Of a stretch of DNA of 52,758 nt, positions 37,031 to 49,994 are shown one piece after another. The notes beneath the pieces were generated by a model. The model was not told the origin of the DNA. It worked only from the letters and a program-made list of their open reading frames with translations, and did no database searches. This DNA comes from an uncultured Gammaproteobacteria bacterium (GTDB lineage: Bacteria > Patescibacteriota > Microgenomatia > Levybacterales > UBA12049): NCBI GenBank assembly GCA_964653195.1, contig CAZZCX010000005.1:17829-70586 (forward strand), given 5' to 3'. Both the position numbers and the translations under genes were made by a program. Position 1 is the first letter of the stretch; every line of letters starts with the position of its first letter.

Positions 37031-40000
37031 TTACTTACTTGTGAATGATAACAAATCTGTATAAGTTAAAACAGATAGATCAAGATTAGATTGCATTAGC
37101 GCAGGTTCCTCTTTAAATGTTCCTGAACCAGCTACTCTAGCATAGTAAACCAGATTTTTGTCATTATATTTAAGCCACCCGGGATCGTTGAATATTGAAA
37201 ATACTATTTTATTATTTTGTGCACTTTGAACCCAGTCATCGGTTTGATATGCATAATATGCAGGATTCTCGACATATACCAATCCCGATGGTAGGATATC
37301 AGTGATTGTGTATTGTCCACGAGGGCTATCATTACTCGCGAAGTTGAAAGATAATTTCACCCGTACGATATCGCCAGGTTTAAAAGATGTACTTTTATCA
37401 GTCAAATTGGTATATGTTTTATCGAGCGTAAGTCTTTTGTCTTTAGAAAAGGATTTGAATGCATTTACACCTAGTGAATAAGTCAACATGACATCTGCTT
37501 TTCCTTTTTGAACAGAAAGCCTGAAATTATTAAGTTCTTCATTTGATAGTCTTAAATTCCATGCAGTCTGATTTTCAAATTTTTTCTGAATGGTACGAAC
37601 GTTTGAAGTATACGTCATTTCAGTAAATTCTTTTGGTAGTTTGGCCAATTGATTTTCTATATACTTAATTTCTGCCAAATCTAGTACGATATCCTGTGTA
37701 TCATATTTAAAATCGCGAACATAAAGATATAAGCCTTCGTTATATTCCGGCTCAACAAGTGCCCCTAGTAAGAGTACTAGACTGGAATTTTTGATTAATT
37801 CATCTACTGTCGCTTTTTCAAATTGAATTCTTATATAGGGCTTACTAATATAAGCGTATTCCGCCAAAATATCATAATAAAGATTTCTAGCAGTTTCTGT
37901 ATCTCCATTTTGTGCAAGTGCAATTCCCGAGATAGTTTTTTCCATAATTGTGACTGATTCATTTGCATACTGACGTAATACATTAAGCATCGGTTTACCG
38001 ATGCTTTGCAAGCCCCATGCTGCGTATATTTTTCTAAGCCTATCGTTAGGTGTATTTTGTAGTTCTCTTTCAAAGTAACTAAGCATTCTTTCACGATTAA
38101 AAATCTCTGGATTTACAGATGCCGCCCATGCAGATACAGGAAGATCATCTCCGCCCCATTGCACAAGGCTTATCCCACCGTTTTCAGTTTGAAATTTCTG
38201 AAGTGATTCTGTTGCATCGGCACAATCTGTTTCTTTATACAAATCTACAAGAATTTGTTTTGCTTTTAATTGACTAAGCTTTTTCTCAATTCTATTACTG
38301 CTTCCGTAACAGCGATATACTAAGTCGTAGTAATAAATACCTTTTCCTGAGTCAGTGATATAAAGGTTTACGGGTTTATCTTTTAGGATATTACTAAGAT
38401 CGGGAGCTTTAAGTGTCGATCCATTTTGCATAGAAGTCTTATTTTGTTTTTCAAATGAAAATCTGCTTGAAATTACAGAGTAGGGAAGTGAGACAGCATC
38501 TTTTTTGTTACCTGTCGATCCATGTAATGCAAGCGAATATACACCTGTAGACAATTTAGGAAATTCAAATAAAACTGGCTCATATGCTTTTGCCTTTTTT
38601 TCCGACTTATAAAGAACTGTTTTATCCTTTCTAAATTCTGCTGAATATGTGATATTTGATGAGTTATTTAATGCAGTTCCATATGACCGACTGGTTAATT
38701 TGGGCTTATCAGCTGTGAGCACTTCAGACATAAATGCAGGGAATACAAAAAAATCTTTCGTTGTAATCATACTCGTCCGTGTATGTCCCGCTTCAAATTT
38801 ATCGTTATATGCTTGGGCAAAGACAATCCAGGAGGTTATATTATCGGGTAGCTTAACTCGAAATACTGTCTTGCCTTCAGCATTTGTTCTAGCTTGGCTG
38901 AAGTACGCTGTGTCTTTAAAGATATTGCGTTCTTCTCCTCCTCCGCCACCGCCTTTTTCTGCACCACTTTCATCCGGGAATAGGGATTGATGGGAATAAT
39001 AACTAAAATAGATTCCTGAATCTATATATTTATAAAGTGACGATAGAGGTGATGGTAAATTTACTCCACCAATTGCTTCCATTGCTTCATCTACAAGTAC
39101 CAGTTGTACTTGTGTGTCACTGGCCAATTGCCCATCTTTATTTTTTACAGTTACAGTTATTTCAGCATCATCTCCGGGCAGGTAATTTGTTTTGTCAAAG
39201 CTTAAATCAAATTGGAGATTTTTATCCTCTTGTTTATATGCAAAGTTTATTGAAGGAAGCGAATAATCATTGTAATAAGAACCATATACACAACGCCATT
39301 CCCACAAACACGATGATCGGGCAAGGGTGTAACCTTTGCCTGTAAATATAACAGCGCTAGCAAAACTATTCGGGAGATGATTTGTCGAAAAAGCAAAAGT
39401 TAACTGAGGTGATTCGCTTACAATTGCTTCCTGCATTCCACGAGCGGAAATAAGGAAAAGAAAATTATTTTCTTTCGTATCGGTGTAGAGTTTATCTCCT
39501 AATTGTATTTTTAGCTGAACGTCTTCATTTAGTCCATACAAATTATCTTTTTTATTCAGCAGTAATTCTGGGAATTCTCTATCCGTTATATTATCTTCAT
39601 GTCGGTTATAAGCATAAAAATATTCTGTTATTTCTTGTTTGTGACCATCAGAGTCTGTGACAGTTAATGTTGCGCGGTATGATTTGTCCGGTTCAAGTGC
39701 GAACTTATGATGAAATTTCCCTGTATCATCTGCTGTAAGGGTAGTTTTTAGAATCTGTTCCTCATTACGTTTATAATCATATTTAGGCTTTGTAATCTTT
39801 TCGATAAAATCATAAAAGGTACCGGAAGGAGTTTTTGTATACCAGTATTTATATATGTTTAATTCGCCTTTTTGTCCTGCAGCTGGTTTTCCGGTATATC
39901 CCTGGTCAGGATTTTTATTATATTTATCCAAATCTATATTATTTGCCTGAACCTGAAAATTCGCCTGTGTACTTTCCTGGTTGGAGTTAGAGTCTAGGAT

Positions 40001-42139
40001 GACGCGATTGTTGAATGAAAGGACGCAGCCATTGCCTTCTATAGTTTTTTCAACCGCTGCAGCAGGCGTAAAAGTAGCACAAGCATAATAATATAATGAG
40101 TAAGGATCATACGCTGGTTTTAGCGTATAATCTAGCTCTCCTTGATTATTGGTTTTTAGCTCGCCAGGATTTGCTCCATATCTCTCAAAAGTTTTTAAGG
40201 AAATATTTGAAACCGGGGTGTTATCATAGAAGGCAACCTGAGCTTTAAAATTTATAGATTCTCCAGAAAATACTGCTTTTTTCGCACTGGTGACATTTAT
40301 TTTTATGTCGGGTTTGGTGTAATTCTCTATCGAGAAACCTGAAGAGATCACGTTTATTCCGTCAGCTTGGACGCGTAAGTTGTACCAGCTAGGTGGAAGA
40401 TTTGTATATGAAATAGAACCGATGAATGTCCCGTCTGCTTCTGGATTAATATCTATACTTTTTAGATCGTTTTCATAAGATTCGCCGGTCTCATAATAAT
40501 ATCTGGAATTACTTATTGATACTTTTATCCTTGAGGGTGAACTATTCGTATCTCGCTCTTTCACAATACCCCAAAAATAAATTGTATCATCAGGTTTATA
40601 AAGTGTGCGTTCGTGATAGAGGTAAGTCCAGTAATCTTCCTTGGTTTTTTTTGCTTGCTGACCACTTGTATAAAAAGGAATATACAATTCTTTTTCATCT
40701 TTTATCAATTTGATATATGTTCCAGGTTGGTTTAGTGCAGTCTGCGGAGTGTCAAATATATTTATTCCTTGGTCATTAGTTACGCCAAGATTTCCCACTC
40801 CTTCAGCTTGTACAGTGACATTTGCTTGAGGTTTACCGTCATCAAGAGAATTGGTCCACACTGTAGATTTTTTCGTTCCCCCGGCTAGAAATCCTGATAA
40901 ATTTGTTGACTGCAGCCATACATATTCTTTATGTTTTTTTTCACCATATTCGATCTGTACGAGATAGAACCCCGCTGGTAACGTAGTAGGTAAACGAATA
41001 AATTTGACATCATTTTGTGATTCAATAGCTAAATCAGCCTTAGATAATAATGAAAGTTTTGTGAGGTCTATTGATACGTTCTCAGGATAATAAGAATACC
41101 AGCTTCGATAGCTTTCGTCTGGTACTTTTCTTGAATTTATGAAACTTCCGCTGTCAGGAAACTGATAGATATTGGCTTTTACTTTACTACCGTCCCAGTC
41201 GTATGTATAGACTTTAAATTCCGCTTTTTCGTTTGTAGCTATTTGTTGCAGATTTTTCGTTATAGTAAGGTAAGGTTTATTAGTTTGTTTTTTCTCAACT
41301 TCAGTTTGAAAGGAGAATTTAAAATCTTCAGCTAGTGGATCATTTCGTGATTTTAGATTCAAGCCTTTTTTCAATGTGACTGTATACAGTGTTGCCTCGG
41401 TAAGTTTATTATTTGGTACTATTGCAAGTGTCTCTGCGTGGTATTCAAGTCTATAATCTAATTTTGGGGATATTGAAATAAAATTATTTGCGTTCTGAAA
41501 ACCATCTTGGCTGAATGTAATTTCAATTCCGGTATTGGTTGGTACATTGGTTTTTTTATTTCCCGGTATGCTACTCACGACACGAAATTTCCCTTGAGTC
41601 TGAAAAGCCCAACCATAATCACGATCGAAGCTCTCTTTACTGATTTTATCGTTCTTAGTCAAAAGTTTAATTTCATAAAGTGAATCAGTAGCTATTGGAC
41701 TATCTGGAGTAAGTGTATAAGTAGTGTTATCTACTTTTTTTATCGTTACAGGTGAAGTGGTTTTTAAATTTTTTCTGAGAAAATCTTCAGGGATGGCATT
41801 CTGCGTTTTCAGAATAAATTCTTCACTTGGCAGTATGCCGTATTTATTTGTCGTTTTTGCTTTAAGTGTAAAAAAAGTTGGTTTTCTTTGACTAATAACT
41901 AATTTCTCATAATTACCCTGATCTAGAGGAAGTTGATTATTGGATTGTGGCTGATTTGGATTCTGTATCTGTAGAAGAATTCTAATCAAAAGGAGAAAAA
42001 GTAAAATAATTATAAAGACTAAAGAAGAAATAAAAATAAACTTTTGTTTTTTAGTGATTGAATTCCATTTCGAAATTAATCTATCTTTCAATGATAGTGG
42101 CTGATGAGGAGATTGAACGGTTGAAGGAGACTCATCCAT
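37031..42139 (-). CDS. Alpha-2-macroglobulin family protein (about 1,700 aa), thioester-less, membrane anchored
   Basis: N-terminal TM segment and serial Ig-like MG domains. The A2M domain signature is ERNIFKDTAYFSQARTNAEGKTVFRVKLPDNITSWIVFAQAY. No CxEQ thioester motif anywhere. Start trimmed to ATG 42139. Confidence 0.8.
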   Translation of the reverse strand: MDESPSTVQSPHQPLSLKDRLISKWNSITKKQKFIFISSLVFIIILLFLLLIRILLQIQNPNQPQSNNQLPLDQGNYEKLVISQRKPTFFTLKAKTTNKYGILPSEEFILKTQNAIPEDFLRKNLKTTSPVTIKKVDNTTYTLTPDSPIATDSLYEIKLLTKNDKISKESFDRDYGWAFQTQGKFRVVSSIPGNKKTNVPTNTGIEITFSQDGFQNANNFISISPKLDYRLEYHAETLAIVPNNKLTEATLYTVTLKKGLNLKSRNDPLAEDFKFSFQTEVEKKQTNKPYLTITKNLQQIATNEKAEFKVYTYDWDGSKVKANIYQFPDSGSFINSRKVPDESYRSWYSYYPENVSIDLTKLSLLSKADLAIESQNDVKFIRLPTTLPAGFYLVQIEYGEKKHKEYVWLQSTNLSGFLAGGTKKSTVWTNSLDDGKPQANVTVQAEGVGNLGVTNDQGINIFDTPQTALNQPGTYIKLIKDEKELYIPFYTSGQQAKKTKEDYWTYLYHERTLYKPDDTIYFWGIVKERDTNSSPSRIKVSISNSRYYYETGESYENDLKSIDINPEADGTFIGSISYTNLPPSWYNLRVQADGINVISSGFSIENYTKPDIKINVTSAKKAVFSGESINFKAQVAFYDNTPVSNISLKTFERYGANPGELKTNNQGELDYTLKPAYDPYSLYYYACATFTPAAAVEKTIEGNGCVLSFNNRVILDSNSNQESTQANFQVQANNIDLDKYNKNPDQGYTGKPAAGQKGELNIYKYWYTKTPSGTFYDFIEKITKPKYDYKRNEEQILKTTLTADDTGKFHHKFALEPDKSYRATLTVTDSDGHKQEITEYFYAYNRHEDNITDREFPELLLNKKDNLYGLNEDVQLKIQLGDKLYTDTKENNFLFLISARGMQEAIVSESPQLTFAFSTNHLPNSFASAVIFTGKGYTLARSSCLWEWRCVYGSYYNDYSLPSINFAYKQEDKNLQFDLSFDKTNYLPGDDAEITVTVKNKDGQLASDTQVQLVLVDEAMEAIGGVNLPSPLSSLYKYIDSGIYFSYYSHQSLFPDESGAEKGGGGGGEERNIFKDTAYFSQARTNAEGKTVFRVKLPDNITSWIVFAQAYNDKFEAGHTRTSMITTKDFFVFPAFMSEVLTADKPKLTSRSYGTALNNSSNITYSAEFRKDKTVLYKSEKKAKAYEPVLFEFPKLSTGVYSLALHGSTGNKKDAVSLPYSVISSRFSFEKQNKTSMQNGSTLKAPDLSNILKDKPVNLYITDSGKGIYYYDLVYRCYGSSNRIEKKLSQLKAKQILVDLYKETDCADATESLQKFQTENGGISLVQWGGDDLPVSAWAASVNPEIFNRERMLSYFERELQNTPNDRLRKIYAAWGLQSIGKPMLNVLRQYANESVTIMEKTISGIALAQNGDTETARNLYYDILAEYAYISKPYIRIQFEKATVDELIKNSSLVLLLGALVEPEYNEGLYLYVRDFKYDTQDIVLDLAEIKYIENQLAKLPKEFTEMTYTSNVRTIQKKFENQTAWNLRLSNEELNNFRLSVQKGKADVMLTYSLGVNAFKSFSKDKRLTLDKTYTNLTDKSTSFKPGDIVRVKLSFNFASNDSPRGQYTITDILPSGLVYVENPAYYAYQTDDWVQSAQNNKIVFSIFNDPGWLKYNDKNLVYYARVAGSGTFKEEPALMQSNLDLSVLTYTDLLSFTSK

Positions 42140-42248
42140 AGCGAATAATATATTCAGTATGGCAATGCTTAAAGCTGTAGTCAATAGCAAAAAGCTTGGC
42201 AAAAAAATTTGTTACTTGTTTAATTATTTATTCAAGATTATAGGGAAG

Positions 42249-42263: not shown

Positions 42264-43358
42264 ATGAATATTTCTTGCGGGATAGTTGGATTACCAAATG
42301 TAGGTAAATCGACATTATTTAATGCTCTTCTGAAAAAACAGCAGGCACTTGCTGCGAATTATCCTTTTGCGACAATTGAGCCAAACATTGGGGTAGTTCC
42401 GGTTCCGGATTATCGCTTAAACCAAATAGCTGAAATTACAAAACAGGAAGAAAAGATGACGAATCTTCCACCACTAAAACCAGCCACGGTCGAATTCGTA
42501 GATATAGCAGGGCTCGTGAAAGGTGCAAGTGAGGGGGCAGGCCTCGGGAACAAATTTCTTTCGCATATACGTGAGGTATCAGTAATAACACACGTCATAC
42601 GAAGTTTTACTGACGATAATATTATAAGAGAAGGAAGTAGTGATCCTGAGTCAGATTATGCGGTTATACAAATGGAGTTACTTCTGGCGGATTTACAGAC
42701 TGCGACTTCTCATGAACAAAAAACAAAAAATAAAGCAGAAAAAGAACTTTTTCAAAGAATTCAAAGCGATTTAAATGCGGGAATTCCTGTACGTGACATG
42801 CGTTTTCGTGATGATGAGGAAGAAAGAGTCCGGCAGGTATTCTTTTTGACTTACAAACCTGAAATGCTTGTTCTTAACGTTTCAGAAGATGATTATACAG
42901 AGAAAAAAAGTGCCATATTAATTCAAAGATATGCGAATTTACTTCAACTTGCGCCAGATAAGATAGTTGTCATTTGTGCGAAAATTGAAGAAGAATTAGC
43001 TGTACTTACAGATGAGGAACAGGCTATTTTCCTCAAAGAACTGGGTATTGAAGCTTCTGGTCTTTCGCAATTGATCCGCAAAGCTTATCTGAAATTGGGC
43101 TTAATTTCATTTCTGACTGCGGGGGAGAAAGAGGTGAGGGCATGGACTATAAAAAAGGGAACCAGTGCACAGTTTGCAGCAGGAGAAATTCATACAGATT
43201 TTATAAAAAAATTCATAAAAGCCGAAGTCGTATCCTTTTCAGATTTTGTGGCACATAAAGGATGGAAGGGTAGTCGGGATTTAGGAAAAGCGCGATTAGA
43301 AGGAAGAGATTATGTGATACAAGATGGAGATGTCGTGGATTTTAAGATCGGTGCTTGA
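42264..43358 (+). CDS. ychF: Ribosome-binding ATPase YchF
   Basis: MNISCGIVGLPNVGKSTLFNAL, the DIAGLVKGAS G3 region, and a TGS-like C-terminus. Confidence 0.9.
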   Translation: MNISCGIVGLPNVGKSTLFNALLKKQQALAANYPFATIEPNIGVVPVPDYRLNQIAEITKQEEKMTNLPPLKPATVEFVDIAGLVKGASEGAGLGNKFLSHIREVSVITHVIRSFTDDNIIREGSSDPESDYAVIQMELLLADLQTATSHEQKTKNKAEKELFQRIQSDLNAGIPVRDMRFRDDEEERVRQVFFLTYKPEMLVLNVSEDDYTEKKSAILIQRYANLLQLAPDKIVVICAKIEEELAVLTDEEQAIFLKELGIEASGLSQLIRKAYLKLGLISFLTAGEKEVRAWTIKKGTSAQFAAGEIHTDFIKKFIKAEVVSFSDFVAHKGWKGSRDLGKARLEGRDYVIQDGDVVDFKIGA

Positions 43359-43413
43359 TGGAGACCTGCCTGCCGGCAGGCAGGTGTCGTGGATTTTAAG
43401 ATCGGTGCTTGAT
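43331..43413 (+). repeat. 29-bp direct duplication of the ychF 3' end flanking a perfect 22-nt palindrome
   Basis: TGTCGTGGATTTTAAGATCGGTGCTTGAT occurs at 43331-43359 and again at 43385-43413. The palindrome ACCTGCCTGCCGGCAGGCAGGT lies between them at 43364-43385. Confidence 0.9.
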
Positions 43414-43585
43414 CTTCAGGTGTCTACTTAGTGCGCCCCCGGTGTGTGTAATTCGCAATATCTCTCAATTTCTTCGTAAATGTTATTAACTATATCTTAT
43501 AGTAGTCAAAAGTGATATAATGCTTACTTACTCGTATTAATTAGTTTTAAGCAGATATACGAGTATAGATCACAATATTTATAAT

Positions 43586-43942
43586 ATGGTATCAGGTAGA
43601 GAATCAGAACAAGGAATATTCGGTGGGTATACGCAAGCTGCTCTTCAACAGCAAGGAATAGCAAGGGATCTTCCCGGAGCTAGGTTTCATCGTAAGTATA
43701 TAAAACCAGGAGGAGGGCGTAGATACACTCAAGATGTTTTGTCAGCAGACGTAATTAAAAAGGAGCATTTAAAAGACGATGGTTTTATTGAAGATGGTAC
43801 GGTAGTCGGTGTTACTGCGAATAGGACTGAACTTACCCATTATGATGTACAACCAGAAGGCGATAGTTGGATATATGTCAGAGATATGGATGGTTTACCT
43901 GTATTTAGAAAGAAAGCGTTACAAAAACGTGACTGGCGATAA
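43586..43942 (+). CDS. Orphan small protein (118 aa), paralog of 47521-47928
   Basis: Shares the blocks LPgARFHrKY..GG, FIeDGTVV and GLPV with the 135-aa protein. Confidence 0.6.
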   Translation: MVSGRESEQGIFGGYTQAALQQQGIARDLPGARFHRKYIKPGGGRRYTQDVLSADVIKKEHLKDDGFIEDGTVVGVTANRTELTHYDVQPEGDSWIYVRDMDGLPVFRKKALQKRDWR

Positions 43943-44007
43943 GAAAATTATACTAAAATTTTAGTTTCAGATATTCTGGCAAAAATGTCATGTCTAGAAA
44001 ATTATAA

Positions 44008-45672
44008 TTAAAAACTCCATTTTCTATGTGGCCACTTGTTTGGATCTTGGCTAGCCTGATCACCTACAATTCTAACATTTGGTTTACGCCAAGTATTATA
44101 AAAATTATCCAGTGGTTCTCTTGCGTAAGTGTCCATAAACCAAGGGGAAACCAAATCTATAGAGTCAGCCCAGTCTAGCTGATATTCATCAAGCGGATCA
44201 GAATATTTACTAGTAAACCAGGAATATTCTTCAGGCTTCATTTCTTCCCTTTCTCTTCTGTATTTTGCACTTAATTCTGATAAAATTTCACTAGTTTTTG
44301 TATCTTCAGTTATTTCAATACCTTGTATTTTTGCTATTTTTCGTGCCCATGTGTCTATTCCGCCGTGTTGACTTATATAGCCATGTAATTTTAAATGAGG
44401 TAGAAGACCTGTTGCATGTGTTGCTGCAACAAATCGGAACGGATCTAGCCCATATGCAATCATAAGGCGTGATACATATTCATCGCCTCGAAAAGTATCA
44501 AATCTAAATTCATCCCATATAGACGGAATTTGATTATAAAATTCCTTAAATTCATCTGGCATTCCAGGTACCTCTTCATCCCACATCTCAACTCCCTTTA
44601 ATAATTTATCCATTGTGATAGGTTTGGTTTGGTCAGTAAAAAAATTTCTCAACAGAATTTGATCACCAAAAGCACATTGATCTAGTATAAATCTTGTGAT
44701 ATGTGAGAATGACTGGCTTGCAAGGGTATCACCAAAAAAATAAATTGTACCTTCAGGACAATCCTCAGGTAAATCTAAAGGATGTAAATTTAGTTTACCC
44801 ATTGAGTCTGGTCTAATTTCTGATCTATATTGCTCCAGATAATAATATCCAGGGTTTCTTCCATCGTAAGCGTGATTATCTCCACCATCCTCTCGGTCGG
44901 TCCAGTTAAAAGACATAGTCAACCGTTTTTGATCAAGAACATTGTCATCTGTTGGATTTACCCTTAGTCTAACCAGGAATGAGGATCTAGGATCTGAAGG
45001 ATGAGTAACACCTTTTAAAGGGAACCTTATAAGATCTGCTTTTACTAAGTCATTCGGCTCAGAATCTAATATTAAAGCTTTTTCTAATGTTTCTTCTGTA
45101 TGTTTTAATAATTTTCCAGGTAAAATTCCGGATTCAATATCAACATTGGGTCCTTCCTTTACCATATCAAAAATTCTTTTCGCTCTAGTGTCGGGTTCAT
45201 CTTCTATTTGAACATGTTTTACATCGATTTCCCTGGCTATCCTTTGAGGAGAGAAATAGCCAGGTGGTACACCTAATCTTCTTAGCTTTTCTGTACTACC
45301 TCTAATCTCAAATTTTCTACTTTTTCTAGCTAAATGTTCAGCAGAGTGCTGTGCTATAGCCGCTGAAGTCAAGTCCTCTATACCTGGATCAGCTAAGCGA
45401 TGTATAAAATCTGGTGACTCTTCTTGTGTGATCATAACTAGTAACAGTCTATTCATAGCTTCAATATATGGTACATTTCCTGTATCTGAAATTTCAGGAA
45501 GATTAAATGCACCTGACATTCCAGCTGCTTGCATAATAGCTTCATCGTCCAATCTTCGAGTCAATGATCTAACTATTAGCTCCATATAAGGAATTGCTGG
45601 ATTATTGTCAAAAATAATTTTCAGCCCTTCTGTGAAGGGAGTAGGGGATAAGTTTTTTTCTTTTTCTACCAT
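44008..45672 (-). CDS. Orphan cytosolic protein (554 aa), Trp/Asp/Phe-rich
   Basis: Long clean ORF that starts 3 nt after the upstream regulator gene. No TM segment, signal peptide or recognised domain. It contains an HSAEH (HxxEH-like) string of unknown significance. Confidence 0.7.
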   Translation of the reverse strand: MVEKEKNLSPTPFTEGLKIIFDNNPAIPYMELIVRSLTRRLDDEAIMQAAGMSGAFNLPEISDTGNVPYIEAMNRLLLVMITQEESPDFIHRLADPGIEDLTSAAIAQHSAEHLARKSRKFEIRGSTEKLRRLGVPPGYFSPQRIAREIDVKHVQIEDEPDTRAKRIFDMVKEGPNVDIESGILPGKLLKHTEETLEKALILDSEPNDLVKADLIRFPLKGVTHPSDPRSSFLVRLRVNPTDDNVLDQKRLTMSFNWTDREDGGDNHAYDGRNPGYYYLEQYRSEIRPDSMGKLNLHPLDLPEDCPEGTIYFFGDTLASQSFSHITRFILDQCAFGDQILLRNFFTDQTKPITMDKLLKGVEMWDEEVPGMPDEFKEFYNQIPSIWDEFRFDTFRGDEYVSRLMIAYGLDPFRFVAATHATGLLPHLKLHGYISQHGGIDTWARKIAKIQGIEITEDTKTSEILSELSAKYRREREEMKPEEYSWFTSKYSDPLDEYQLDWADSIDLVSPWFMDTYAREPLDNFYNTWRKPNVRIVGDQASQDPNKWPHRKWSF

Positions 45673-45675
45673 ATT

Positions 45676-46812
45676 CTATTCCTCCCAGCGGTAACCTTTA
45701 CTTTTTATTGTTTTTAGTGATTTAGGATTTAAGCCGGATTTTTTTAGCTTATCCCGAAGCCTTTTAATTGTCTGATCCAGCGTCCAGTCATTATAATCCG
45801 TATAATTCATCCAAATCCGCTGTGCTATTTGCTCACGAGTTACCGTATTTTTGCTGTTAATAAGAGTCTTGAGAAGCTGTATATCTCGATTAGTAAATTT
45901 ATCTAAAATTACTCCATTAATTTCCATTTGATTGTTCGAAGTAAAATTAATGGTTTTCTTTGTTATCTTGAGAATGTAATGTTCTAACAACGGCACGCTA
46001 ATTTTTAATTTTCCTTGGTTGATTACAATCAGCTTATGCGATATCAAAGTCTCAGCTATAGAATTTAAATCCGGAGAATAAGTATTATTATTTGCCAGAG
46101 CCGATAGTACTCTTTGGTAAAAATTTGGTAAAGAATTCCAGATTGAACGAAGTTTTAATTGCATTGTCGTATGCCTATAAGAAAATTCACCACTCAGTTT
46201 ATAATTTCTTATTATTTCTGATGTAAGTCCTACATAACCGCCGCAGAGATCCTGTATAAGCTCTGTTTGTGATTCTGAAAGTGTAACATTAAGAAGATTA
46301 CTAAAGTAGCGGATAAAGTGAGATATGTCTTCTTGACTGTAAAGTGGGACGCGTAGGATGTTCTTGCACAAAATTTGATTCGACAGTGTGATTTTTTCAA
46401 AATCTATGATAAAAGGGTCAGTTTCGTAAGTAATGATGAATGTATCTTTTGGCTCAGGTTGGTATGAGAGTTGACGCATCTGTTCAAAAAACTGGGGATT
46501 ATTTTCTATCACCCATTCGCCATCCATGACAAAAAAGACCTGGTTTACTCCCGAACCAGGTCTCAGGCTCTCAATTTTATCTTTAAAAAAAGCAGGTTCG
46601 CAATTTAATGACTGAATATTCAATTGTCTTATTATTTTTTTACTTCTATATTGTGGCGGGTATTCCTGGATAAATTGGGCGACTCTGTAATATCTGTCAG
46701 ATTTAGGTAGAAAAATAGTGTTAGCGGATTCGAAACCATCAATGCATCCTTTCCAAAAGGTAAACAGACTTTTAGTTGCGCTATCAGGTATAGCTGTCAG
46801 GGGTTTTTTCAT
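45676..46812 (-). CDS. wHTH (OmpR/PhoB-type trans_reg_C-like) DNA-binding protein with a non-receiver, P-loop-less NTPase-like N-terminal region
   Basis: C-terminus TREQIAQRIWMNYTDYNDWTLDQTIKRLRDKLKKSGLNPKSLKTIKSKGYRWEE. The N-terminal 270 aa has no receiver Asp pocket and no Walker A, but has a Walker-B-like VFFVMDGE and a lid-like VPLYSQEDISHFIRYF...DLCGGYVGL. Confidence 0.7.
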   Translation of the reverse strand: MKKPLTAIPDSATKSLFTFWKGCIDGFESANTIFLPKSDRYYRVAQFIQEYPPQYRSKKIIRQLNIQSLNCEPAFFKDKIESLRPGSGVNQVFFVMDGEWVIENNPQFFEQMRQLSYQPEPKDTFIITYETDPFIIDFEKITLSNQILCKNILRVPLYSQEDISHFIRYFSNLLNVTLSESQTELIQDLCGGYVGLTSEIIRNYKLSGEFSYRHTTMQLKLRSIWNSLPNFYQRVLSALANNNTYSPDLNSIAETLISHKLIVINQGKLKISVPLLEHYILKITKKTINFTSNNQMEINGVILDKFTNRDIQLLKTLINSKNTVTREQIAQRIWMNYTDYNDWTLDQTIKRLRDKLKKSGLNPKSLKTIKSKGYRWEE

Positions 46813-46911
46813 ATGATTGGGAATTATAGCGGAGTTCAGTCATTCTGACAACTTTATGTCAGGAATTGGCGTCAAGTATATCTATTGACCAGGCTTTATA
46901 ATTTCGCCAAT

Positions 46912-47475
46912 ATGTTTAAAGAAAGAGCAAGTAAGGGTATAGATCGAGTTTGTATTAAGCCAATCTCCGAAAAACTTAATACCCATTTCAAATCCGGTGG
47001 TTCAATCCGTGAGGCATGGGGAAATAGAGCAGAATTTCGTCAAGTATTAGATGCCCAGGCAATTGACCCTCGAAACAAATCACTTCATGCTTTAGCAGGA
47101 ACAGGATTAGCTTTAGGTGCAATTACAGTTTATGAAGCATATAGGGCAAATCACAGCGGTTTACCATCTTCGGCAGAAGTTGTTGCGGCAGCTGTGCCAG
47201 GTTTATCATTAACTCAAATTAATATTTACGATAGTGCAAAATTACAAGCGCAACAAGGCCAAAGTGACGTTAGTGGTGCTGACAAGCGGAGATATATCAG
47301 CGATACACCGGCTACTAAGTTTCTTTATGTTTACACAGGTGAAGTTTCAAAAGATGGAAGGCCATTTATAGTAGCAAGAGGAAGTTCCGGTATCCCGCAA
47401 GATGTCAGTCCTGATAAAGCCGCACAGCTTACAGGTCAGGTATTTCATAGAGGAAATAGCAGAATAAATAAATAA
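46912..47475 (+). CDS. Orphan protein (187 aa from ATG 46912)
   Basis: Divergent from the regulator gene. TATAAT (46897-46902) lies 9 nt upstream of the ATG. One weakly hydrophobic segment (LHALAGTGLALGAITVY). Confidence 0.55.
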   Translation: MFKERASKGIDRVCIKPISEKLNTHFKSGGSIREAWGNRAEFRQVLDAQAIDPRNKSLHALAGTGLALGAITVYEAYRANHSGLPSSAEVVAAAVPGLSLTQINIYDSAKLQAQQGQSDVSGADKRRYISDTPATKFLYVYTGEVSKDGRPFIVARGSSGIPQDVSPDKAAQLTGQVFHRGNSRINK

Positions 47476-47520
47476 CTGAAAATTTCTATAATGTCATTAT
47501 TAAACTAAATTATCATAAAT

Positions 47521-47928
47521 ATGAGCGCAGAATATGACAGATCGGAATCAGGTGATATAGACCCATTAAATCCAGCAATTAAGTTTGAAGATGATATAAC
47601 GGAAACATTACCTCAGGCTCGATTCCATCATAAATACTCATTTGGCGGACCCGGGGGAATTGTACGTAATTGGAAGCGTGTAGAATATTTGCCAGATGAA
47701 GTGAGACCAGAAAATGCTCGAATTGAACTTGTAAGTAGAAGTTATGGGCGAGAGGTTACATGGCATAAGCACGAAAAATTTATTGCTGAAGGAACTGTTG
47801 TATATGAGGGATCTCAAATAGATGAACGAGGTAAAGAAATAGGTAGAATACGAAAAATACATGATCATAACGGTAATTCAACATTTGGTGGTCTACCGGT
47901 AAGAGCTGTAATTACACCTCATAAGTAA
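47521..47928 (+). CDS. Orphan small protein (135 aa), paralog of 43586-43942
   Basis: LPQARFHHKYSFGGPGG, FIAEGTVV, GLPVRAV. Confidence 0.6.
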   Translation: MSAEYDRSESGDIDPLNPAIKFEDDITETLPQARFHHKYSFGGPGGIVRNWKRVEYLPDEVRPENARIELVSRSYGREVTWHKHEKFIAEGTVVYEGSQIDERGKEIGRIRKIHDHNGNSTFGGLPVRAVITPHK

Positions 47929-48075
47929 ATATTTTAATTTAAATTCCAACTGGGGGTGGATTAAGTAAACGCCTACAGAATTTAAATATTCCTTAAAATA
48001 AATAATAAAGATATTGCCGGGTTTGCCTCTTGTATTACGTTCGTTTAAGGTATACAGTCGAGATAGAAGCTAAAT

Positions 48076-48438
48076 ATGGCTCACCCATTTGAAAGTGAGA
48101 ACCATCTAGGCAGGGGATTAGACGGTCCTATTTCTCCAGAAGGACCGATAGCTTCAAGTGGTGAAAAATTAGATTTTGACTCTCCAGATAGTCCTCACGT
48201 ATTAGAAAGACTAAGATATTTCGGTAAAGGTGGCGCAAGGCAGCCTATTACTCCAGAACAACTCGCTATAGAAATAGGTGAGCTTCCGTCTAGAGTAAAA
48301 CGGTTTAGGCGACGTGTTGAAGAAGATTTGAGAACTTTTAACGGTATGATGCGGAATTTAGAAGAAAAAGAAAGAAATAAAAGAGAGGGAGATGAAGCAA
48401 GGGCTCTAGCAGAGAGGAGATTTTGGACAAGGCATTAA
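48076..48438 (+). CDS. Orphan charged protein (120 aa)
   Basis: ORF only, with an Arg/Glu-rich helical C-terminus. Confidence 0.5.
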   Translation: MAHPFESENHLGRGLDGPISPEGPIASSGEKLDFDSPDSPHVLERLRYFGKGGARQPITPEQLAIEIGELPSRVKRFRRRVEEDLRTFNGMMRNLEEKERNKREGDEARALAERRFWTRH

Positions 48439-48501
48439 GTCATCTAAGCTTGTAATTTCTGAATAATATGTTAAGATTCATAAGTCATTTTATTAATACA
48501 T

Positions 48502-48678
48502 ATGGAACGAAGAGAAACTCCAAAATTAAAACAGGATGGTCCAGGGCTACTTAGGCTACAGGCAGCTCAAGAGAGATTAAAAGAGATAAAGAAAAAGTTG
48601 CCCCTTGTTGGTTATCTGGAAGGAGCAGAAGGTCCAGAAGGTCCAGAAAGTCCAGAAAGTCCAGAAAATAAAACATAA
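48502..48678 (+). CDS. 58-aa ORF with C-terminal (G/S)PE nonamer repeats (missed by the ORF track)
   Basis: MERRETPKLKQDGPGLLRLQAAQERLKEIKKKLPLVGYLEGAEGPEGPESPESPENKT*. It contains four tandem 9-nt units (gaaggtcca / gaaagtcca). Confidence 0.35.
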   Translation: MERRETPKLKQDGPGLLRLQAAQERLKEIKKKLPLVGYLEGAEGPEGPESPESPENKT

Positions 48679-48742
48679 TTTAGTCTTTAAGCTCTCTGTT
48701 TTTAAATAGAATTATCAGAGATATTTATACGTTATTTACCCC

Positions 48743-48772
48743 TTGCGGAAATGAGCTTGAATTTGTTATTAT
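48743..48772 (+). promoter_or_regulatory. rpsF promoter (leaderless geometry)
   Basis: TTGCGG (48743-48748), 18-nt spacer, TATTAT (48767-48772). The A of ATG 48779 is 7 nt after the -10 and there is no SD. Confidence 0.5.
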
Positions 48773-48778
48773 TACGGC

Positions 48779-49054
48779 ATGAGATTATATGATTTGATCG
48801 TAGTTATGCGATCTTCATTATCAGAAAAAGAACGTGAAAAACTTCTTGATAGTATCAAAAGTTGGCTAAAGGATGTAAAAATCGTCAATAGTTCGTCATG
48901 GGGCCAGAAGCCACTTTCTTATAAAATCAAAAAGGAAATTTCGGGAATATATCAGAAAATGGAGCTAGAAGCTGAAAACATCCCAGCAGATTTCGAAAAA
49001 AGGCTAAATACGAACGAGAATGTTCTGAGACACCTGCTTTTAAGGAAGAAATAA
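48779..49054 (+). CDS. rpsF: 30S ribosomal protein S6
   Basis: MRLYDLIVVMRSSLSEKE... and its position in the conserved S6-SSB-S18 gene order. Confidence 0.85.
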   Translation: MRLYDLIVVMRSSLSEKEREKLLDSIKSWLKDVKIVNSSSWGQKPLSYKIKKEISGIYQKMELEAENIPADFEKRLNTNENVLRHLLLRKK

Positions 49055-49163
49055 AAAATTAGAAATTAAATCTCAAAAATACAAAGCAAAAATTTGTAAA
49101 TTTATATTTATTATCTATTCTTTGTATATTTGATTTCTTATTTTTAATATTTAATTTATACAT
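49055..49163. repeat. Q-family AT-rich intercistronic element, copy 2
   Basis: It fills the rpsF-ssb gap. AAAAATTAGAAAT at 49054-49066 and TTATTTTTAATATTTAATTTA at 49138-49158 are identical to copy 1. Confidence 0.8.
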
Positions 49164-49664
49164 ATGGCACGAAGTTTAAACAAAGCTCAATTAATAGGAA
49201 ATTTGACAAGGGATCCAGAATTACGATATACACCATCAGGTGCAGCAGTATGTACTTTCGGTCTAGCGACAAATAGGTCTTGGACTACGGATACAGGTGA
49301 GAAGCATGAGGAATCAGAGTTTCACAATATAGTTTCGTGGAACAAGCTTGCCGAGCTTTGCAGTCAATTTCTTGTAAAAGGCAGAAAAGTATATGTAGAG
49401 GGACGCCTGGCAACGAGGTCTTGGCAAGGACAAGATGGACAGTCGCGGACAAGAACAGAAATAGTTATTGATGATATGATACTTCTTGACAGTAAAGGAG
49501 CAGGATCATCAACTGCAGTTCGCAGTGAGGGAGGTAACCAGCCGACAGTAGTTAAACAAAATGTTGCAAAAAAACCAAAAGAAGAAAAGACTGAGGAAGT
49601 GACTCAAGAAGTAGTAGAACATTCAGGAGGTATTGATGTACCACCGGATGATATACCTTTTTAA
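49164..49664 (+). CDS. ssb: Single-stranded DNA-binding protein
   Basis: OB fold NKAQLIGNLTRDPELRYTPSGAAVCTFGLATNR and acidic tail DDIPF. Confidence 0.95.
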   Translation: MARSLNKAQLIGNLTRDPELRYTPSGAAVCTFGLATNRSWTTDTGEKHEESEFHNIVSWNKLAELCSQFLVKGRKVYVEGRLATRSWQGQDGQSRTRTEIVIDDMILLDSKGAGSSTAVRSEGGNQPTVVKQNVAKKPKEEKTEEVTQEVVEHSGGIDVPPDDIPF

Positions 49665-49745
49665 CTTATTAATTAATTATTAACGGGTTAATGAGTTTTT
49701 TAAACTCGTTAATAAACAACTTGCTAAATATAAAATAAAAATAAC

Positions 49746-49994
49746 ATGGCCAAGAAAAGAATTACCAGAAGACCGAAAAAAACAGCTCAAGTCCCACTTG
49801 AATGTTATTTCTGTAAAGAGAAAAAGGAACCAGTATATGAGGACATCAGTGTTCTTACTCGTTATATAACCGATCGCGGGAAGATAACACCACGATCCCG
49901 TAATGGTTTGTGCTCCAAGCATCAAAGTGCTTTGGGTGATAATATTAAGTATGCTAGACATCTAGCTCTTCTTCCATTCGTAATTCGCGAATAG
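49746..49994 (+). CDS. rpsR: 30S ribosomal protein S18
   Basis: CYFCKEKKEPVYEDISVLTRYITDRGKITPRSRNGLCSKHQ... Confidence 0.9.
   Translation: MAKKRITRRPKKTAQVPLECYFCKEKKEPVYEDISVLTRYITDRGKITPRSRNGLCSKHQSALGDNIKYARHLALLPFVIRE

Follow-up and report, generated by a model that had tools for sequence, protein, structure and literature searches.

What does a block of seven orphan genes do between two universally conserved gene units? The question is raised by a 5.1-kb block between ychF and rpsF-ssb-rpsR in a 52,758-nucleotide stretch of DNA, here called the window (GenBank assembly GCA_964653195.1, contig CAZZCX010000005.1, positions 17,829 to 70,586 of the forward strand). The window is deposited under an uncultured Gammaproteobacteria bacterium and is placed by GTDB in the Levybacterales of the Microgenomates, within the Candidate Phyla Radiation (CPR). 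An initial annotation, made from the letters alone, took the block for one system with the layout of accessory, conflict or defence modules. We find a smaller conserved unit, consisting of an operator, a winged-helix regulator of 378 amino acids (aa) and a large orphan partner of 554 aa. Its alleles are old and highly divergent, and recombination appears to move them between genomic backgrounds. We propose, with a probability of about 0.5, that the unit is an autorepressed, strain-variable sensor/partner cassette of the conflict type with a Microgenomates-specific two-gene operon as its core.

The conserved unit

Which genes of the block belong together? All seven open reading frames (ORFs) of the initial annotation were verified in the window on the strands it had given, as was the 3-nucleotide (nt) gap (45673-45675) between the regulator and 554-aa genes, both on the minus strand. 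The core of the locus is made up of the following elements, in window coordinates.

44008-45672, minus strand: large partner, 554 aa, second gene of the core operon
45676-46812, minus strand: regulator, 378 aa, first gene of the core operon
45688-45897, minus strand: winged helix-turn-helix (wHTH) domain of the regulator (aa 306-375 by Pfam; also PDB matches)
45949-46812, minus strand: N-terminal domain (N-domain) of the regulator (aa 1-288), with P-loop-like motif order
46823-46851, minus strand: operon promoter, with -35 box TTGTCA (46851-46846), 17-nt spacer and -10 box TATAAT (46828-46823)
46839-46876: operator, with palindrome CTGAC-N8-GTCAG (46845-46862) and flanking TGAC-type half-sites GTCAT (46839-46843) and GTCAAG (46871-46876)

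The regulator and the 554-aa protein had been annotated as a pair, and they are indeed one: the two stand together in every allele, and the trio of operator, regulator and partner occurs in more than 30 Microgenomates loci. The idea of one seven-gene system did not survive, as the conserved unit is this trio and the genes for the 187-, 135-, 120- and 58-aa proteins are lineage-restricted and vary in presence. The regulator was used as the probe because it is better conserved than the large protein. Full-length regulator homologs of 24 to 32% identity were found in Gottesmanbacteria, Roizmanbacteria, WWE3 and other metagenome-assembled genomes (MAGs), each followed, where the contig was long enough, by a same-strand ORF of 425 to 697 aa. 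Moreover, the large acidic protein is always behind the regulator on the same strand, either overlapping it or a few nucleotides away. Judging from these loci, the trio appears to be found only in Microgenomates. About 22 of 29 loci have a divergent ORF whose start is 3 to 141 nt away from the regulator; its family differs by lineage, and its domains are heterogeneous.

Upstream of the regulator is the conserved element CTTGAC(G/A)CC-N5-CTGAC-N8-GTCAG(A/G)ATGAC-N13-TATAAT, which is kept in all alleles, in Gottesmanbacteria and in other homologs even though the surrounding DNA is unalignable. The palindrome has a single match in the window, where 0.05 would be expected. It was found in 15 of 103 fetched loci. 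In 14 of these, all of them module loci, it precedes the regulator ATG by about 50 nt; in the fifteenth, L101, the site is about 5 kb away from the regulator. An operator probe was also run against GTDB species genomes. Among the matches listed (at least 120, mostly chance ones in unrelated bacteria), at least 20 lie 30 to 70 nt upstream of a full-length regulator homolog, and only these 20 regulator-adjacent matches were used; all are in CPR MAGs, and nearly all have a downstream ORF of 300 to 830 aa. One locus, L192, carries two copies of the operator motif (523 and 1324).

The operon promoter scores higher than any other promoter match in the region (11 of 12 positions), and its -35 box is inside the palindrome. 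The -10 box ends 10 nt ahead of the regulator ATG, and thus the regulator mRNA would be leaderless or nearly so. Across the window, a Shine-Dalgarno sequence is missing from many genes, including rpsF, ssb and rpsR (43556-43585, 46813-46830, 46893-46911 and 48749-49745), and several genes have a TATAAT box 5 to 10 nt before the ATG, which suggests that leaderless mRNAs are common in this organism. The motif DY.DW.LDQ.IKRLR.KL in the recognition-helix region of the regulator is nearly invariant in an alignment of the family. From the conservation of both the recognition-helix region and the site, we infer that the regulator binds the operator and autoregulates.

Exchange of divergent alleles

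How do strains differ at this locus? Compared to contig L009, the window has flanks that are 91 to 95% identical at the nucleotide level, and positions 43692 to 47584 are without DNA similarity to the corresponding L009 segment. Protein identity to L009 is 48% for the 118-aa protein at the far end of the block, 37% for the regulator and 25% for the large protein. The near breakpoint, at about 43691, is inside the 118-aa gene, the 3' two-thirds of which co-vary with the regulator/large-protein allele, and the far breakpoint is about 65 nt inside the 135-aa gene. Contig L002 carries the window's allele and retains a further gene, F9. When L002 and L009 are compared, similarity returns at F9 plus the operator, ending just past the palindrome, and in the 5' third of the 118-aa gene. 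Thus, the swapped unit takes in the regulator and the large protein together with the 3' two-thirds of the 118-aa gene.

Other comparisons give a similar picture. Contigs L102 and L103, from one metagenome, have p187-like genes that are 86% identical and operators that are 89% identical, and their regulators are unalignable. L007 combines a more distant flank with a closer cassette (69% nucleotide identity). The synonymous divergence (dS) of ychF is 0.35 to L002 and 0.12 to L009, the reverse of the cassette relationships, while other genes have a dS of 0.04 to 0.17 to L002. From these values, ychF (42264-43358) seems to be mosaic, with a recombination tract reaching into it. Between the window and L002, the core pair is no more divergent than the genomic background, and divergence peaks are found on both flanks. 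Breakpoints, incongruence and divergence profile together suggest that recombination carries old, divergent alleles from one background to another.

Selection was gauged by the ratio of nonsynonymous to synonymous divergence (dN/dS) between the window and L002. The ratio is 0.03 to 0.18 for housekeeping genes, about 0.3 for the core pair (0.29 for the regulator and 0.30 for the 554-aa protein), and 0.44 to 2.0 for the small genes (0.44 for the 120-aa gene, 0.87 for the 118-aa gene and 1.0 for p187, the gene for the 187-aa protein).

The regulator

What kind of regulator is encoded? It is the only one of the seven products with a significant family match: aa 306 to 375 match Trans_reg_C, the OmpR/PhoB winged helix, in Pfam (E=5.4e-14, above the gathering score), in keeping with its annotation as a wHTH protein. 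Twelve of 13 family members match Trans_reg_C, and PDB profile matches of the domain include RstA, BaeR and PhoB. NCBIfam matches span only the C-terminal 70 to 100 aa and fall far under the family cut-offs. Pfam gave no Response_reg match and hence no receiver (REC) domain, and by this measure the protein does not appear to be a two-component response regulator. An AlphaFold2 (AF2) model from a three-sequence alignment had a mean predicted confidence (pLDDT) of 48.5, with the wHTH (60 to 79) as the only credible part. An apparent split-regulator pseudogene in strain contig L004 turned out to be a run of N.

The N-domain has a motif order reminiscent of P-loop proteins. The motif P[KR].DR.YR.QF occupies the Walker A position in 26 of 27 homologs, and the window reads LPKSDRYYRV; Walker A itself is found in only one of the 27, the WWE3 homolog in L101, which has GMGGNGKS at the aligned position. 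After the Walker A position, the window N-domain has a Walker-B-like VFFVMDGE, a sensor-1-like FIITYETD, a lid-like PLYSQEDISHFIRYF and CGGYVGL. Family-wide, the series runs hhhhDAE (Walker-B-like), a strand ending in N or D, a lid-like PLY..D..FI.Y and CGGh.WL.KE, colinear with AAA+ and STAND proteins. Alignment to the RFC small subunit is likewise colinear and non-significant (E=0.7), and weak Pfam matches to an AAA+ lid (E=0.011) and to iSTAND (PF19995; E=0.077, in one of 13 members) are both sub-threshold. With moderate confidence, we regard the N-domain as a putative degenerate P-loop module of the AAA+/STAND-like kind without Walker A.

The large partner

How far can the 554-aa protein be traced? 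Its gene starts 3 nt past the regulator stop codon and has its own GGGAGG Shine-Dalgarno sequence. A word-indexed search with the 554-aa protein returned two relatives among 5.8 billion proteins, and such searches with the large protein and the regulator N-domain found only same-species relatives and relatives of 58 to 67% identity. Distant relatives of the large protein came solely from an exhaustive HMMER search of 1.84 billion cluster representatives, standing for 15 billion proteins, which gave four matches. One of these, P0007 (E=3.5e-4), is a Mycoplasma-type Lipoprotein_17 protein and was rejected as a false positive; all true relatives directly follow a homolog of the 378-aa regulator. 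In pattern-based locus searches, the large-protein profile had no match in genome, metagenome or viral collections.

The partners of other lineages could nonetheless be connected by profile comparison, as hhalign links the 554-aa protein to them at 93% over about 300 columns. A single-linkage cluster of partners holds 13 proteins, and its profile adds five more at 1e-4 to 3e-10. These links suggest that the partners are one very fast-evolving orphan superfamily. Residues kept in at least 11 of the 13 are P28, R124, G125, D178, R272, R327, R395, P411 and P510 (window numbering). The 13-partner alignment has no invariant constellation of His, Cys, Ser, Glu or Lys, and thus a classical hydrolase center is not evident. 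No Pfam domain was found in any of 16 partners, and PDB profile searches with the large protein came back empty. Sub-threshold Pfam matches to SF3a60_bindingd, CdiA_C (0.0035, in P0005 only), pPIWI_RE_Z (0.098), TIM-barrel_EndoS and G2P_X_C were set aside as inconsistent among homologs, and an AF2 model from a three-sequence alignment was unusable (mean pLDDT 38). Two loci depart from the usual layout downstream of the regulator. L162 (933-3780) has two tandem large-protein paralogs behind one regulator. In L220 (4746-5879), the gene after the regulator lies outside the partner family and has a cytidine/dCMP-deaminase-like region (E=3e-5, just under the Pfam cut-off); it is the sole downstream gene with any recognizable domain.

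The small genes

What are the remaining ORFs of the block? They are listed below.

43586-43942, plus strand: 118 aa, ARFH family F1, convergent on the core operon
46912-47475, plus strand: 187 aa from the ATG at 46912 (196 aa if from the TTG at 46885), family F6, divergent from the regulator
47521-47928, plus strand: 135 aa, ARFH paralog, family F1
48076-48438, plus strand: 120 aa, highly charged, family F8
48502-48678, plus strand: 58 aa, family F7

All seven ORFs of the block have GC1>GC2>GC3, as do bona fide genes, and their reading frames remain open in other strains. Clustering of the small genes gave six recurrent families, namely F1 (ARFH), F6 (p187), F7 (p58), F8 (p120), F9 and F10, which recur beside different alleles in the window's sub-lineage and are absent from the distant module loci. 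The annotated paralogy of the 118-aa and 135-aa proteins holds up, if weakly: a pairwise BLASTP gives E=7e-5 and 31% identity over 87 aa, and the two are joined in one family through relatives. The ARFH profile scores them at 1e-53 and 3e-37, respectively, they share the motif LP.ARFH.KY..PGG, and the profile found nothing meaningful in the PDB. L002, L009 and L007 encode homologs of the 118-aa protein at the corresponding position, and L014 has one after ychF.

The p187 gene has a TATAAT 8 nt before its ATG and is the first gene in the window to share the operator-containing intergenic region. Homologs of p187 are upstream of the regulator in L002, L102 and L103. In relatives, the gene adjoining the regulator is F9 (169 aa), which, with a 365-nt spacer, is present in L002, L003 and L004. 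A window-specific deletion of about 870 bp, with its junction at 46881-46908, removed F9 and the spacer and left p187 next to the operator. Family F8 is confined to the window's sub-lineage. The 58-aa protein has a C-terminal (EGP)n tract from a 9-nt tandem repeat (48619-48663); the region around its gene (48510-48701) is unalignable as DNA to either L002 or L009, and all three encode a distantly related 58-aa ORF.

The composition of the block had been described as slightly richer in GC than its surroundings. This is so for the small ORFs (0.38 to 0.42, compared to 0.355 for the window) and not for the core pair (0.35 to 0.36), which is at background, and GC content was dropped as an island signal. 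Of the reported richness in Trp, Asp and Arg, the Trp part failed (0 to 1.8% in block products); Asp is enriched in the 554-aa protein (8.7%, with a net charge of -26), and the small proteins are rich in Arg and Gly. No convincing transmembrane segment was found in the products, the highest 19-residue Kyte-Doolittle mean being 1.17, in p187, and no dedicated signal-peptide predictor was used; with a peak that low, a transmembrane helix in p187 was dropped as a candidate.

The ychF-rpsF junction

Is the block an insertion or part of a conserved core? The flanks, both identified through the near-identical contig L002, are as follows.

42264-43358: ychF flank
48779-49994: rpsF/ssb/rpsR flank

Its ychF places the window in the Levyibacteriota (Microgenomates, CPR), the closest species-level representative being L014 (ychF 74% identical). 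The junction was surveyed in 62 related loci from GTDB species representatives that retain both ychF and rpsF. The order ychF and then rpsF-ssb-rpsR is the rule across the 62, and the gap between them ranges from 16 bp to 6.9 kb, measuring only 16 to 71 bp in 16 of them. Larger gaps carry unrelated genes, among them genes for sigma-70 region 4, histidine kinase, PP2C, ThyX and DUF7897 proteins. Given the variable gap size and the unrelated contents, we conclude that the junction is a variable hotspot and that, measured against the usual gene order, the block is an insertion, as the initial annotation had suspected.

The regulator/large-protein pair occupies the slot in none of the 62 related loci. 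It is present there in same-species strains, in L009 (ychF 94% identical) and in L008 (ychF 52% identical). Its presence in the same slot in so distant a relative as L008 argues for a long-lived hotspot resident rather than a recently arrived mobile island. In line with the accessory or conflict-type layout first proposed, the locus does have the strain variability typical of such loci.

Some neighboring loci fill the slot in other ways. In L014 (9321-13050), an ARFH gene comes right after ychF and the pair is missing; the slot instead holds a 732-aa orphan and a 366-aa ORF with a weak LAGLIDADG-like match. L030 (11847-12911), also of the Levyibacteriota, has a different Trans_reg_C protein of 354 aa in the same slot and orientation, adjoining a ThyX-domain protein and without a large partner. 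Just upstream of ychF, the window encodes a 1723-aa protein (37031-42202, minus strand) with Big_5, MG2 and alpha-2-macroglobulin-like domains (precomputed Pfam matches on the 98%-identical L002 ortholog), with a Memo-like gene next to it, and in L046 a protein with an alpha-2-macroglobulin TED-like domain is inside the ychF-rpsF gap.

Searches for known systems and mobile elements

Does any product resemble a known defense or mobile function? Pfam, NCBIfam, PADLOC and PHROGs gave no significant catalytic-family match for any of the seven products, in agreement with the initial annotation, and no significant match of any kind for the six products other than the regulator; no toxin, antitoxin or abortive-infection (Abi) family was matched in the same four libraries. 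Homology to a housekeeping enzyme, the finding that was to count against an unusual system, was found for no product. The PADLOC-DB 2.0 defense models matched none of the seven window proteins. A wider set of 56 proteins (27 regulators and 29 downstream ORFs) gave three isolated PADLOC matches, to mad2, DpdA and E1-E2, in a summary that does not specify the source proteins. In PHROGs, the window proteins had no significant match except phrog_731, of unknown function, on the wHTH. Phage genomes gave no match to the block, and viral contigs, searched with the large protein only, gave none either. No BREX, PglZ, MoxR or vWA gene was nearby in the loci examined. Finally, the window contains no tRNA, and the Pfam scan found no recombinase domain (integrase or transposase).

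The 3' end of ychF, including its stop codon, is duplicated as a 32-nt direct repeat (43328-43359 and 43382-43413, 97% identical) flanking a GC-rich palindrome (43361-43388). The arrangement corresponds to a 54-nt insertion that is in the window and not in strain L002 and that may be a terminator or a scar left by recombination or excision. We discarded the repeat as an attachment site for the block, as only 54 nt separate its two copies and no third one exists.

Discussion

How the cassette might work can be proposed as follows. The regulator wHTH would bind the operator, repress its own operon and probably control the divergent neighbor, which in the window is p187. The N-domain, as an inactivated P-loop module, would serve as a sensing or protein-binding surface and not as an NTPase. 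It would work allele-specifically with the large partner and, in this lineage, also with the C-terminal part of the 118-aa protein. From such allele-specific contact it would follow that regulator, partner and part of the 118-aa protein are replaced as one while the DNA-binding interface stays frozen. Finally, the role would be of the conflict type (anti-invader defense, an addiction-like module or strain incompatibility) and not core physiology; we base this on products that are cytoplasmic, on the depth of polymorphism at a single locus, on the rapid evolution of the small partners and on a patchy distribution.

We also consider a more specific version, which is speculative and, we think, doubtful. 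The trio could be an undescribed Microgenomates immunity or strain-incompatibility system of the sensor/effector kind, in which the P-loop-wHTH protein represses and reads an invader or non-self signal through allele-specific contact with a partner that is a new effector fold. Its alleles would be kept by negative frequency-dependent selection and would recombine through the frozen operator and the ARFH gene.

Several points weigh against a conflict-type cassette. Among members of one allele class, selection on the core pair is purifying and its divergence is at the genomic background, and thus nothing directly indicates that positive selection is still acting on the pair. The pairing draws some support from a correlation between the divergences of the regulator N-domain and the partner (Spearman 0.39 over 55 pairs), but the pairs are non-independent and shared ancestry alone would give such a value. 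No defense, phage or viral match came from PADLOC, PHROGs, phage genomes or viral contigs, and the neighbors in other lineages are motley, without a defense-island signature. Part of the conserved operator element is simply a promoter. Every profile match of the N-domain is sub-threshold (E of 0.011 to 0.7), and its AF2 model had a pLDDT of 25 to 60. Moreover, CPR genomes are rich in fast-evolving orphans, and recombination with distant lineages could give deep alleles without a conflict role.

An ordinary, lineage-specific regulatory operon of the CPR is a serious rival. The regulator would then be a physiological one-component regulator and the partner a co-regulator, an unrecognized enzyme or a structural protein, and the alleles would result from the rate at which CPR orphans evolve and from homologous recombination at a permissive intergenic site. 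Such an operon would fit a pair that is old and widespread in Microgenomates, that keeps the same slot in distant L008, that is under purifying selection within its allele class (dN/dS of about 0.3) and that matches nothing in any defense library, and other fillings of the hotspot are regulatory or metabolic (sigma factor, histidine kinase, PP2C and ThyX). Alleles only 25 to 37% identical on near-identical backgrounds are unusual for a physiological regulator, however, and 80 species-level relatives are without the pair at this locus. The linked small genes, with dN/dS of 0.44 to 2.0, and a partner without conserved catalytic-type residues also speak against it, and we consider the ordinary operon possible but somewhat unlikely. 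A toxin-antitoxin (TA) or abortive-infection addiction module would be a sub-case of the conflict reading, the first gene encoding an autorepressor and neutralizer and the second a toxic effector. The tightly coupled bicistronic operon with its DNA-binding protein first, the overlap of the palindromic operator with the -35 box of what is a strong promoter, the replacement of both proteins as a unit and the patchy distribution are all as expected of one. Nevertheless, proteins of 378 and 554 aa far exceed typical TA pairs, the toxin, antitoxin and Abi families went unmatched, the partner has no conserved catalytic residues and the context is not that of a mobile element, all of which makes an addiction module improbable.

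Two further explanations carry very little weight. The block might be what is left of an integrative mobile element with the 3' end of ychF as its target, as the 32-nt duplication just downstream of ychF and the status of the locus as an insertion relative to many relatives would allow. However, the repeat copies, with a distance of only 54 nt between them, do not enclose the block, no copy is near rpsF, the integrase, transposase or tRNA of such an element is absent, and phage, PHROG and viral searches found no counterpart; in other lineages, moreover, the module is at other genomic positions without ychF. A mobile remnant is therefore very improbable. Equally hard to credit is a block of unrelated neighbors or spurious ORFs, in which the small ORFs would not be genes and functional unity would be lacking. 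The dN/dS of p187 and p135 near or above 1, the fruitless family searches and the restriction of the small families to loci close to the window could be read that way. Against this stand the coding-type GC1>GC2>GC3, frames that stay open across strains despite many substitutions, motifs kept at 31 to 34% identity and the recurrence of F1, F6, F9 and F10 beside different alleles.

Where, then, does the proposed sensor/partner cassette stand among known systems? By sequence, membership appears to hold only for the OmpR/PhoB-type wHTH family (PhoB, RstA, BaeR and ToxR), which the C-terminal 70 to 90 aa of the regulator resemble (E=5e-14). Unlike OmpR/PhoB regulators, the window protein has neither a receiver domain nor a phospho-acceptor and carries instead an orphan P-loop-like N-part of 290 aa, and its operator is mainly a palindrome and not only direct repeats. 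The operator half-sites TGTCA/TGACA presumably resemble the Pho-box half-sites of PhoB.

AfsR-type SARP regulators combine an OmpR-type DNA-binding domain with BTAD, a STAND NTPase and TPR (PMC10936776), and AfsR thus shares with the window regulator the union of an OmpR-type DNA-binding domain and a STAND/AAA+-like module in one polypeptide. The window regulator differs in its reversed order, with a C-terminal wHTH, in that no BTAD or TPR was detected, and in the loss of Walker A from 26 of 27 family members, and there is no significant sequence match. Inactive STAND modules (iSTAND) are Orc/Cdc6-like P-loop sensors of BREX (BrxB) and of MoxR-vWA conflict systems (PMC7159879, PMC12839542). 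Like the window N-domain, they have eroded Walker motifs, evolve rapidly and are proposed to be sensors or adaptors and not NTPases; the window N-domain differs in being fused to a wHTH, in keeping the lid-like helical region and in scoring below the PF19995 threshold.

In operon design, the cassette is like type II/IV TA and AbiE-like operons, which are coupled two-gene operons, patchy and strain variable, that begin with an autoregulator and have a -35 box covered by a palindromic operator; the window proteins are much larger and without toxin or antitoxin family homology. In genomic setting, it is like metagenomic islands and recombination hotspots, with a block between core units, variable content, mosaic flanks and cassette exchange by flanking homology. 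Metagenomic islands differ in that the window products are cytoplasmic and not at the cell surface, and in that a homologous, hyper-divergent operon is exchanged and not unrelated gene sets, with the operon's own operator as one breakpoint.

Much of bacterial diversity belongs to the CPR, and the accessory genes of these bacteria are mostly orphans. To our knowledge, almost nothing is known of how CPR bacteria regulate genes or handle phages and competitors. The trio provides a rare foothold: a regulator family is tied to a precise DNA element, which did not change as the proteins drifted apart to 25 to 37% identity, and the family is tied as well to an obligatory partner family, with natural allele swaps marking the parts that work together. 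An anonymous orphan cluster thereby becomes a testable hypothesis. If the trio is a conflict system, it would be a new sensor/effector architecture from a group beyond current defense catalogues. Should the regulator instead be a physiological one, the analysis would still have defined a transcription-factor family, widespread and CPR-specific, along with its binding site.

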